From Escherichia phage PP01, in the sequence record NC_054930.1: 64,000 bases of DNA; one strand, 5' to 3'. This document shows positions 5,090 to 6,761 of the stretch, in pieces (positions within the stretch are counted from its first letter, which is position 1; every line of letters begins with the position of its first letter). Under the pieces are notes generated by a model. That model saw nothing but the letters and a program-made list of their open reading frames with translations. It made no database searches and was not told the DNA's origin. A program made the translations under genes and the position numbers.

Positions 5090-5400
5090 CCTTGCGGCAA
5101 CCTTGTCGGGGTTCCACCTGCTAAGGCAAGTGTTTGTACGAAACGCCGGGATTCGAACCCGGTTATTAAGTAGTTGACGCTACTCAATATTTTTAAAAGG
5201 CCATATCTCGACCATATCCGAACGTTCCGTCAAAAACGCTACTCGGCTTATGGCAAAGATATTTCCTCGAATCGATAATTCGGTGCGCCGTTTCTGCTGT
5301 GATATAAGGGGGCATTAACAAAACATAAAGATTTATTAATGCCAGTCCTTACCCAGGGAACATCAGTCCGACGACTTACCGGTAGCGACCCGGTTTCTTG
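5090..5400 (-). ncRNA. Candidate small stable RNA gene(s), T4 RNA C / RNA D-like region
   Basis: No ORF; contains a tRNA-like T-arm (ccgggTTCGAATcccgg, reverse strand) and several stems; position next to tRNA-Arg matches where T4 encodes its two stable RNAs; boundaries not resolved. Confidence 0.3.
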
Positions 5401-5402
5401 TT

Positions 5403-5479
5403 TGGTCGAGACAGAAGGATTCTAACCTTCAACCTACGGATTAGAAGTCCGTTGCTCTATACAATTGAGCTATGCCTCG
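5403..5479 (-). tRNA. tRNA-Arg (anticodon UCU), CCA encoded
   Basis: Reverse strand folds as CGAGGCA-TA-GCTC..GAGC-ACGGA-CTTCTAA-TCCGT-..GAAGG-TTAGAAT-CCTTC-TGTCTCG-A-CCA. Confidence 0.85.
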
Positions 5480-5482
5480 TAA

Positions 5483-6148
5483 TTAAAATTTCATTTTTCG
5501 ACCTTTAAACCATCCTTCTGGAATTGGGTCAGTTTTCTTAATACGTTTAGAAACTTTTTCATCCAATGAATGAATCCACATCATGCCAAATTGGGAATTC
5601 TTTTCACCTTGTTGGTGTTTATTTCTGGCGTGAGATTCTTTCATTTTATTAATAGTTTCAGGAGTATGGGTCTTACCCAAGAAAGATTTAGTATTTAAAA
5701 ATTTCTCTCTATACTTAGGATTATCCCAAAGCTGTTTAAACCTTTCTGAACCCATTTTACGATATTTTTCTTTAAGGTCTGGGTCGTTCTCAAATCTGGT
5801 TTTAAAAGCGGCAGCTCCTTTTAAGGAAGCTTCTTTCTTTTTATCCAAATATTCTTTAGTGTTTAAATGGTCCCAACCACCTTCACCACCTAATTTCAGA
5901 TTATAAACATCAGGGCGCTTTAAAAACTCTTCAGTCACAATATTCTTTTCTGACTCAAACATAGAGGTTTTATCGTCAAAGAACTCTAATATTTCTTTAG
6001 AAAAATTTTCTATACCATATTTATCTTGGGCTCTTTTTAATAATTTACCAGAACCCATATATCCATCATCTAAATTTTCGGTAGAATGAGCGCCTATATA
6101 GATTTTATTATTAATTTTATTTGTTATTTTATAAATGTAATGGAACAT
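5483..6148 (-). CDS. segB: GIY-YIG homing endonuclease SegB
   Basis: 221 aa; N-terminal GIY-YIG module (YIYKITNKINNKIYIGAHS...GYMGSG); embedded in the tRNA cluster as T4 segB is. Confidence 0.88.
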   Translation of the reverse strand: MFHYIYKITNKINNKIYIGAHSTENLDDGYMGSGKLLKRAQDKYGIENFSKEILEFFDDKTSMFESEKNIVTEEFLKRPDVYNLKLGGEGGWDHLNTKEYLDKKKEASLKGAAAFKTRFENDPDLKEKYRKMGSERFKQLWDNPKYREKFLNTKSFLGKTHTPETINKMKESHARNKHQQGEKNSQFGMMWIHSLDEKVSKRIKKTDPIPEGWFKGRKMKF

Positions 6149-6189
6149 AAATATCTCCTATTTCTAAGAGTATTTATGTTCCCAAAATA

Positions 6190-6261
6190 TGGCCCTGGGT
6201 GGAATTGAACCACCATCTGGCGATTATGAGTCGCTTGCTTGAACCTTCCAGCTACAGGGCC
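6190..6261 (-). tRNA. tRNA with CAU anticodon (T4 tRNA-Ile type)
   Basis: Acceptor GGCCCTG/CAGGGCC, T-arm GGTGG-TTCAATT-CCACC, anticodon loop CTCATAA; T4 encodes a CAU-anticodon tRNA-Ile that is modified to read AUA. Confidence 0.75.
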
Positions 6262-6267
6262 TTGATA

Positions 6268-6340
6268 TGCTGATTGACGGAATCGAACCGCCGACGTCCT
6301 CATTACAAGTGAGGTGCTCTACCTACTGAGCTAAATCAGC
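6268..6340 (-). tRNA. tRNA-Thr (UGU)
   Basis: Canonical cloverleaf GCTGATT-TA-GCTC..GAGC-CCTCA-CTTGTAA-TGAGG..GGCGG-TTCGATT-CCGTC-AATCAGC. Confidence 0.85.
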
Positions 6341-6347
6341 GAAATTA

Positions 6348-6434
6348 CGGAGGCGATAGGATTTGAACCTATGAGTCGCCGGAGCGACTGCCGGTTTTCA
6401 AGACCGGTGCATTAAACCACTCTGCCACGCCTCC
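6348..6434 (-). tRNA. tRNA-Ser (UGA), long variable arm
   Basis: GGAGGCG acceptor, anticodon loop CTTGAAA, extended variable arm, T-arm CATAGG-TTCAAAT-CCTAT. Confidence 0.85.
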
Positions 6435-6436
6435 AG

Positions 6437-6510
6437 TCTCCGCGGCAGGATTTGAACCTGCGACATTCTGCTCCCAAAGCAGACGCTCTACCAAACTGAG
6501 CTACACGGAG
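6437..6510 (-). tRNA. tRNA-Pro (UGG)
   Basis: CTCCGTG-TA-GCTC-AGTTTGGTA-GAGC-TCTGC-TTTGGGA-GCAGA..GCAGG-TTCAAAT-CCTGC-CGCGGAG. Confidence 0.88.
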
Positions 6511-6523
6511 TAAATTAAATTTG

Positions 6524-6594
6524 AGCGGATAATGAGAATCGAACTCACATCATCAGATTGGAAGTCTGAGGTAATACCATTATACGATATCCGC
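6524..6594 (-). tRNA. tRNA-Gly (UCC)
   Basis: Acceptor GCGGATA/TATCCGC, anticodon stem TCAGA/TCTGA with loop CTTCCAA. Confidence 0.8.
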
Positions 6595-6600
6595 AAACTT

Positions 6601-6687
6601 TGGTACGAGAAGTGGGACTCGAACCCACAAGGAAATCATTCCGCAGCATTTTAAGTGCTGTGCCTTTACCAATTTGACCATTCTCGC
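6601..6687 (-). tRNA. tRNA-Leu (UAA), long variable arm, CCA encoded
   Basis: GCGAGAA acceptor, anticodon loop CTTAAAA, variable arm CGGAATGATTTCCTT, T-arm GTGGG-TTCGAGT-CCCAC, 3' ACCA. Confidence 0.85.
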
Positions 6688-6688
6688 G

Positions 6689-6761
6689 CTGGGAATAAAG
6701 GACTCGAACCTTTGCATCCTGGAATCAAAATCCAGTGCCTTACCAACTTGGCTAATTCCCA
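6689..6761 (-). tRNA. tRNA-Gln (UUG)
   Basis: TGGGAAT-TA-GCCA..GGCA-CTGGA-TTTTGAT-TCCAG..AAAGG-TTCGAGT-CCTTT-ATTCCCA; first in the T4 order Gln-Leu-Gly-Pro-Ser-Thr-Ile-Arg. Confidence 0.85.

Follow-up and report, generated by a model that had tools for sequence, protein, structure and literature searches.

The locus described here occupies positions 5090–6761 of a 64,000-nucleotide stretch of Escherichia phage PP01 (sequence record NC_054930.1); the whole stretch was analysed and is called the window below. It carries eight transfer RNA (tRNA) genes, the homing endonuclease gene segB and homologues of two stable RNAs of phage T4, rnaC and rnaD, and is very probably the T4-type tRNA operon of a Tequatrovirus other than T4. 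Many Tequatrovirus records, among them Salmonella phage SG1, vB_EcoM_112 and Yersinia phage fPS-90, match the whole region at 93–97% identity. The order in the T4 reference record (NC_000866.4, 70908–72530) is Gln, Leu, Gly, Pro, Ser, Thr, Ile, segB, Arg, rnaD (species 2, 119 nt) and rnaC (species 1, 139 nt); gene content, order, strand and spacing are all identical in PP01, and T4 shares both the terminator and the hairpin over the segB start. The Ile(CAU) and Arg genes that flank segB, in contrast, are other alleles. The locus is that of the published T4 tRNA operon and hence already known; it is among the longest-studied in phage biology, and its re-identification adds little. The initial annotation, made from the raw sequence, had proposed the eight-tRNA cluster interrupted by segB, an Ile-type tRNA with a CAU anticodon, and candidate stable RNAs C and D after tRNA-Arg. 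It was right on the gene content, the CAU tRNA and the stable RNAs, and makes a clean positive control. The analysis adds the boundaries of the RNAs, shows which alleles differ around segB and provides a structure of rnaC that can be tested. The features are listed in Table 1.

Table 1. Features of the PP01 tRNA locus, with positions in the window
Feature	Position	Strand	Evidence and remarks
tRNA-Gln (UUG)	6688–6761	−	ARAGORN, Rfam 67.4 bits; no encoded CCA; 89% identical to T4
tRNA-Leu (UAA)	6601–6687	−	ARAGORN, Rfam 57 bits; encoded CCA; 98.9% identical to T4
tRNA-Gly (UCC)	6523–6594	−	ARAGORN, Rfam 65.8 bits; no encoded CCA; 100% identical to T4 over 72 nt
tRNA-Pro (UGG)	6436–6510	−	ARAGORN, Rfam 70.2 bits; no encoded CCA; pairs with Ser; 89% identical to T4
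tRNA-Ser (UGA), class II	6347–6435	−	ARAGORN, Rfam 62.6 bits; no encoded CCA; 100% identical to T4
tRNA-Thr (UGU)	6268–6340	−	ARAGORN, Rfam 73.5 bits; no encoded CCA; 98.6% identical to T4
CAU-anticodon tRNA, Ile2 type	6190–6261	−	ARAGORN, Rfam 59.9 bits; no blastn match to T4 tRNA-Ile
Hairpin over segB Shine–Dalgarno (6159–6155) and start codon (6148–6146)	6142–6182	−	Folding
segB, free-standing GIY-YIG homing endonuclease gene, 221 aa (666 bp)	5483–6148	−	Pfam, PHROG, T4 identity
tRNA-Arg (UCU)	5403–5479	−	ARAGORN, Rfam 71.1 bits; encoded CCA; no blastn match to T4 tRNA-Arg
rnaD (species 2 RNA) homologue, 120 nt	5282–5401	−	89% identical to T4 rnaD over 116/119 nt
rnaC (species 1 RNA) homologue, 139 nt	5137–5275	−	98.6% identical to T4 rnaC over 139/139 nt
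Candidate T4 middle promoter	6831–6855	−	MotA-box-like TGCTTTA 6855–6849, 12-nt spacer, −10-like TATTAT 6836–6831, read by eye
3′ trailer: two conserved small hairpins and intrinsic terminator	5058–5136	−	Terminator scan, folding

ARAGORN, run on the 64-kb window, finds exactly eight tRNA genes, all on the minus strand, and gives a cloverleaf with its anticodon for each; T4 identities were taken from blastn. All eight belong to Rfam family RF00005, with covariance scores of 57–73.5 bits against a gathering score of 29 bits. The tight packing proposed for the seven upstream genes is present, and the figures first given (575 bp, spacers of 1–13 nt) are close enough to the 572 bp and 0–12 nt measured. 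Only Leu and Arg encode CCA; six genes do not, and PP01 would therefore lean more on the host CCA-adding enzyme. The genes without it include Gly, Thr and CAU-Ile; T4 and most of the sampled relatives, unlike PP01, encode CCA for Gly and Thr. In tRNA-Gln, 10 of the 17 anticodon-arm positions differ from T4 (a compensated stem and positions 32 and 38), and outside the arm (~55 nt) the two genes are identical. The same pattern is seen in milder form in tRNA-Pro and suggests arm swapping or diversifying selection on the anticodon arm. The allele family of tRNA-Arg has an unusual T-loop, UUAGAAU, and the D-loop AAUUGUAUA. An A stands at the position of the near-universal C56 and a U at that of G19, and the combination looks like a swapped tertiary pair (G19–C56 to U19–A56). 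Both changes are fixed in all sampled variants of the allele family (six distinct sequences, 10 loci).

The CAU tRNA is accepted here as tRNA-Ile2-like, probably of the lysidine-dependent type. In a set of 5,344 E. coli genomes, the genes that match it best carry the annotation tRNA-Ile (80.8% identity over 72 nt), its anticodon arm GCGA-CUCAUAA-UCGC is identical to that of the ileX-like gene of phage Melville, and the homologous T4 gene is annotated as an isoleucine tRNA. Read from the sequence, the acceptor stem has the pairs C4–G69 and C5–G68, which we take to be TilS determinants. The allele is the commonest among the sampled relatives. As a mimic of tRNA-Ile2, the RNA would need lysidine formed by host TilS before it could read AUA.

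Codons were counted in 65 long open reading frames (ORFs) of the window (19,285 codons) and compared with approximate background frequencies for the host. With these values, all eight cognate codons are 1.6–5.8 times commoner in the phage ORFs than in E. coli. AGA is used at 11.6 per 1000 codons and AUA at 14.7, the E. coli values being about 2.0 and about 4.3. The eight tRNAs would read the A-ending codons CAA, UUA, GGA, CCA, UCA, ACA, AUA and AGA, which the AT-rich phage genes use far more often than the host does. The T4-style codon supplementation first proposed for the cluster stands as far as the enrichment goes; it is no longer the sole supported role, and the phage is not T4 itself.

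segB lies where it had been placed, between the seven packed tRNA genes and tRNA-Arg. Its product contains a GIY-YIG domain (Pfam PF01541, 26.6 bits, cutoff 22.6), matches the homing endonuclease family phrog_314 (E = 5.6e-49) and is 83% identical to T4 SegB over 221/221 aa, with Y17 and G19 present. The PP01 protein, a putative counterpart of the SegB homing endonucleases of T4 and T6, differs from T4 SegB at 17% of its amino acids. The hairpin over the segB start has a minimum free energy (MFE) of −21.4 kcal/mol (z = −6.39), and none of 200 shuffled sequences is as stable. An equivalent hairpin, restraining expression, has been proposed for T4 (PMC2330249); in PP01, the cover over the ribosome-binding site would likewise keep expression low. 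SegB recognises the tRNA T-arm sequence as DNA, with the core GGTTCRANTCC (PMC2330249). The window holds eight copies of this core against 0.16 expected: six in tRNA genes, one in rnaC and one elsewhere, so that 7/8 fall within the tRNA locus. The scan of the window found no core in the Gly and Arg genes. Arg reads GGTTAGAATCC, and the variant change thus destroys the core in the gene that adjoins segB. The off-locus copy, GGTTCAAATCC, is at 31199–31209 on the minus strand, antisense within a 611-aa ORF (30281–32113, plus strand), and may be a chance match or an off-locus SegB site. SegB would act as a selfish GIY-YIG homing endonuclease aimed at the conserved T-arm DNA of tRNA genes; since the target is this conserved sequence, neighbouring tRNA genes would be dragged into related phages.

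Downstream of tRNA-Arg, the stretch 5402–5090 is free of credible ORFs and structured, as had been proposed; ~265 nt of it is 89–99% identical to T4 rnaD and rnaC, with folding z-scores of −5.2 for rnaC and −2.8 for rnaD. The candidate stable RNAs are the homologues of T4 rnaC and rnaD, late-accumulating RNAs of unknown function (PMC9697503, PMC3014915); a Northern blot of 2022 confirmed both and showed T4 rnaC as a stable RNA of ~140 nt during infection (PMC9697503). As in T4, rnaC follows rnaD and is itself followed by the same trailer and terminator. Similarity searches find rnaC-like sequences in eight named genera (Tequatrovirus, Gaprivervirus, Karamvirus, Winklervirus, Gelderlandvirus, Moonvirus, Kanagawavirus and Marfavirus). 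In the seven genera besides Tequatrovirus the element is located in or beside tRNA genes; in Winklervirus, Karamvirus and Gelderlandvirus it is inside the tRNA array, and the next tRNA gene usually starts within a few nucleotides of its end. rnaC is absent from Dhakavirus, where rnaD joins the same trailer directly (loci L007 and L008, about 2625–2700), a pattern that marks rnaC as a discrete module.

An alignment of 26 distinct rnaC sequences was used for the structure and for a covariance model. The model scores 175.8 bits for PP01 rnaC, the sole copy in the window, and gives only weak matches (12–21 bits) to real tRNA genes. No curated Rfam family was found for rnaC or rnaD, the search at gathering thresholds returning nothing besides tRNAs; a permissive search of 4950–5500 (E up to 10) gave chance-level matches only for both RNAs. 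Matches to plastid untranslated regions in this interval are to the reverse strand of tRNA-Arg and were discarded. A single-anchor 15-mer scan of viral contigs yielded mostly chance among the matches listed and was replaced by two-anchor patterns. Metagenome matches with spans of 128, 132 and 152 nt are GC-rich coding sequence and hence not rnaC. In several records the rnaC homologue is annotated as a small hypothetical protein (Klebsiella phage F48, locus L156, 2516–2653; phage EI, L167, 416–553; NM4.3 and Ursula, L164 and L165), and in phage PG7 a ‘tRNA-Met’ annotation lies under the match (H205/H206). These look like annotation errors that come from the absent RNA family model.

The rnaC structure consists of three helical elements and a T-arm. 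P1 is an acceptor-like stem of seven positions (5274–5268 with 5145–5139), in which one pair switches from A-U to G-C in step across all 26 sequences and a tandem U-U mismatch in the middle of the stem is invariant (alignment columns 10–11 and 143–144). P2 is a long hairpin (5267–5198) with the loop UUGACG (5233–5228); all five pairs of its apical helix covary. It occurs as two unrelated sequence types of the same length, both of which fold as long irregular hairpins with their own compensatory changes. P3 (5189–5164) has 10 bp, nine of which covary, and the loop CGUCAA (5179–5174). The tRNA-like T-arm noted in the initial annotation is CCGGG-UUCGAAU-CCCGG at 5162–5146, with G-C and U-A alternating at one pair. 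Over the alignment 92.5% of the cells are paired, compared with 36–46% in controls with slid partners; pairs with double changes number 17, compared with 1–4 in the controls, and 0/500 shuffles reach the observed values. The loops of P2 and P3 are exact reverse complements, ending precisely at the loop edges, and the six loop–loop pairs are intact in 26/26 sequences. In the Marfavirus clade the loops are UUGGCG and CGCCAA, a compensated change from A-U to G-C. The pairing may form within one rnaC molecule or between two. The 3′ tail (columns 148–152) is UACAA in seven genera and UCCAA, an encoded NCCA, in Marfavirus. A cloverleaf-like fold of the 3′ two-thirds, pairing ACGGAAC with GUUUCGU, was rejected. 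It has 7/7 pairs only in the T4 group and PG7 and 5–6/7 elsewhere, and it conflicts with the helix whose five pairs all covary. The same pairing underlies the ARAGORN ‘tRNA-Met’ call in PG7 and the match of rnaC to tRNA-Sec, its best in the Rfam clan (17 bits, E = 1.4, gathering score 47).

As in a class II tRNA, a 7-bp terminal stem is followed directly by a 5-bp T-stem, with a UUCGAAU loop in most lineages, and P3 ends 1 nt before the T-arm, at the place of the variable arm. rnaC is not a canonical tRNA, however: ARAGORN makes no call for it in the window, and there is no RF00005 match at the gathering threshold. It differs from canonical tRNA in having neither D-arm nor anticodon arm, in the invariant tandem U-U, in a tail that reads UACAA rather than NCCA, and in a noncanonical T-loop in Winklervirus (UGCAUCC). 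The Rfam search gave no match to YrlA or transfer-messenger RNA. TAR–TAR* is a kissing complex of fully complementary hexaloops, and rnaC likewise has two hairpins with exactly complementary 6-nt loops; in rnaC, both loops belong to one RNA, ~50 nt apart, and the contact is a predicted one. rnaC looks tRNA-derived, with the long hairpin replacing the D and anticodon arms; its acceptor-like stem, stacked on the T-arm, would make it a plausible substrate for RNase P, and minihelices can serve as such (PMC11143913). We have not found this conserved tRNA-like fold described before. A literature search for earlier comparative structure or function of rnaC or rnaD found none; the primary papers of 1975–1985 lay outside its scope, and drawings may exist there.

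rnaD begins 1 nt after the CCA of tRNA-Arg. Its fold comprises a 5′ hairpin (5394–5378, 7-nt loop), a long-range closing stem (5375–5369 with 5290–5283) and a central stem-loop that varies between lineages. Among 22 distinct sequences, the 5′ ~50 nt and the 3′ ~30 nt are nearly invariant and the centre exists in three unrelated versions, all hairpin-forming. The inner helix shows some compensatory change; the invariant helices, which by their invariance lie beyond the support of covariation, are predicted by the consensus fold. Several helices of the MFE fold, 36–38/106–108 and 40–42/102–104, were rejected, their partners varying independently in the alignment. In the other genera with rnaC, no sequence matching rnaD was seen. 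Inspection by eye for base pairing between rnaC and rnaD gave nothing convincing, and the two RNAs occur independently in different genera. When a T4-like phage adapted to a semi-permissive host, every line acquired the same single-nucleotide polymorphism (SNP) in rnaD, as reported in 2025 (PMC12685909), which hints at a host-dependent role.

In T4, transcription from a middle promoter just upstream of the cluster yields a primary RNA of ~1.75 kb whose 3′ end lies beyond species I RNA; the eight tRNAs, the segB message and both stable RNAs all derive from it (PMC2330249). The candidate promoter of PP01 is about 1.77 kb from the T-run, and its position would fit the published T4 middle promoter and transcript length. 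The strong intrinsic terminator is a stem-loop at 5086–5063 with a 10-bp stem (7 G-C pairs), followed by the T-run at 5062–5058; the fold of the trailer has z = −4.2. The remainder of the trailer (5087–5136) forms two small hairpins, one of them GGAACC-CCGACAA-GGUUGCC with a 7-nt loop, and is conserved in T4. By analogy with T4, one transcript of ~1.8 kb probably runs from the middle promoter upstream of tRNA-Gln to this terminator. In T4, RNase P cuts closely spaced dimeric tRNA precursors, Pro-Ser among them, and for several of the tRNAs a host enzyme has to add CCA (PMC11143913). In PP01, host enzymes would release the eight tRNAs and two stable RNAs, with RNase P making the 5′ ends, exonucleases the 3′ ends and the CCA-adding enzyme completing the six genes that lack an encoded CCA. 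rnaD and rnaC would be the 3′-terminal products of the transcript.

A number of points weigh against this account of a T4-type operon that supplements codons and is expressed as in T4. Gene identities, homology, structure and covariation are read directly from the locus, whereas transcription and processing of the PP01 operon are taken over from the T4 literature. The generic sigma-70 scan left the middle promoter candidate unscored and found no more matches than in shuffled sequence; such a scan says nothing about T4 promoters of the middle or late class. The ends of rnaC and rnaD, which would leave a 6-nt spacer between the two RNAs, are transferred from the T4 annotation because of the homology, on the assumption of the same processing as in T4. 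Cleavage of the rnaC precursor by RNase P is reported for T4 in older literature. The contact between P2 and P3 is well indicated, though short of proven, by the invariance of the loops and a single compensatory event, the search for further independent loop–loop covariation having found only the Marfavirus clade to differ. The codon enrichment, calculated with approximate background frequencies for the host, fits supplementation and is no proof of a selected function.

The role of the cluster may be a different one. The tRNAs may mainly take the place of host tRNAs lost to cleavage or depletion during infection, or outnumber them, segB being kept because it amplifies its neighbours under immune pressure. 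We hold this to be quite possible, though short of probable, and regard it as a serious rival. In phage T6, the SegB nuclease drives segmental amplification of the adjacent tRNA-Tyr gene and thereby overcomes the tRNA-cleaving system Septu, as reported in 2026, and segB is significantly co-localised with tRNA genes across 296 phage genomes (PMC13096335). The divergence from T4 of the Ile and Arg alleles that flank segB and of the Gln and Pro anticodon arms, the remainder of the genes being conserved, would fit diversifying pressure on regions recognised by nucleases. This mosaicism could, however, simply be the product of co-conversion driven by SegB and of recombination, and the match of all eight anticodons to strongly enriched phage codons is what supplementation predicts. 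Defence against tRNA cleavage and codon supplementation are not exclusive.

rnaC might be, instead of a decayed tRNA, the founder of an uncatalogued family of tRNA-derived structured RNAs, located in or beside tRNA genes in eight named genera of enterobacterial T4-like phages and marked by an acceptor/T-arm minihelix with an invariant tandem U-U, a near-CCA tail and two hairpins that a 6-bp loop–loop contact would lock together. Such an RNA might act on the tRNA-handling machinery of the host, perhaps by decoying the nuclease of a tRNA-targeting defence or an enzyme of processing or modification. The structure in this proposal is well supported and the function is speculation; taken together, we consider it unlikely to be right in full. 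Our leading guess, of low confidence and drawn only from its architecture and its genomic company, is that rnaC is a tRNA-derived RNA engaging host factors that handle or target tRNA. An alternative is that rnaC and rnaD are functionless by-products, decayed tRNA genes or pieces of trailer that owe their stability to structure. T4 deletions that remove the tRNA region are viable, which would count for this alternative, as would the absence of rnaC from Dhakavirus and the lack of rnaD-like matches in the other rnaC genera. No function has been assigned to either RNA since their first description (PMC3014915, PMC9697503, PMC12685909). We nevertheless find it doubtful. Eight named genera have retained rnaC, three of them within the tRNA array; the rnaC helices are maintained by compensatory changes, its two hexaloops are invariant, and the length of P2 is kept despite replacement of its sequence. 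For rnaD, the ends are nearly invariant while the centre is swapped, and the same SNP converged in all adapting lines (PMC12685909). The models of rnaC and rnaD can be tested by mutation, which makes the function of these orphan RNAs experimentally approachable at a time when phage tRNA clusters and SegB have come to be linked with escape from tRNA-cleaving bacterial immunity.

Two reassignments of genes at the locus fare worse. ARAGORN and many GenBank records label the CAU gene as tRNA-Met on the basis of its anticodon, but an elongator tRNA-Met is very improbable given its nearest E. coli relatives, the ileX-like anticodon stem-loop with the C4–G69 and C5–G68 pairs, the isoleucine annotation of the T4 homologue and the frequent use of AUA. 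Weakest is the coding of small proteins in 5090–5400, to which we give almost no credence: there is an ORF at 5193–5321 (42 aa, TTG start) and a TTG-extended frame up to 5187, and many relatives annotate ‘hypothetical protein’ over the homologous sequence, but T4 rnaC and rnaD are experimentally known RNAs and annotated as such (Northern blot 2022, PMC9697503), the substitutions are compensatory for pairing and not codon-like, indels of 1–2 nt are tolerated, and the ORFs are not conserved between genera.

Beyond the operon, PP01 has an additional 157-aa ORF on the minus strand (5010–4537). It separates rnaC from the e.8 homologue, and at this place the T4 record has no annotated gene. The ORF belongs to phrog_2280, a family of unknown function, and has no Pfam match. 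A sequence resembling a T4 late promoter, TATAAATA, is found at 5049–5056, ahead of this ORF and directly after the operon terminator.

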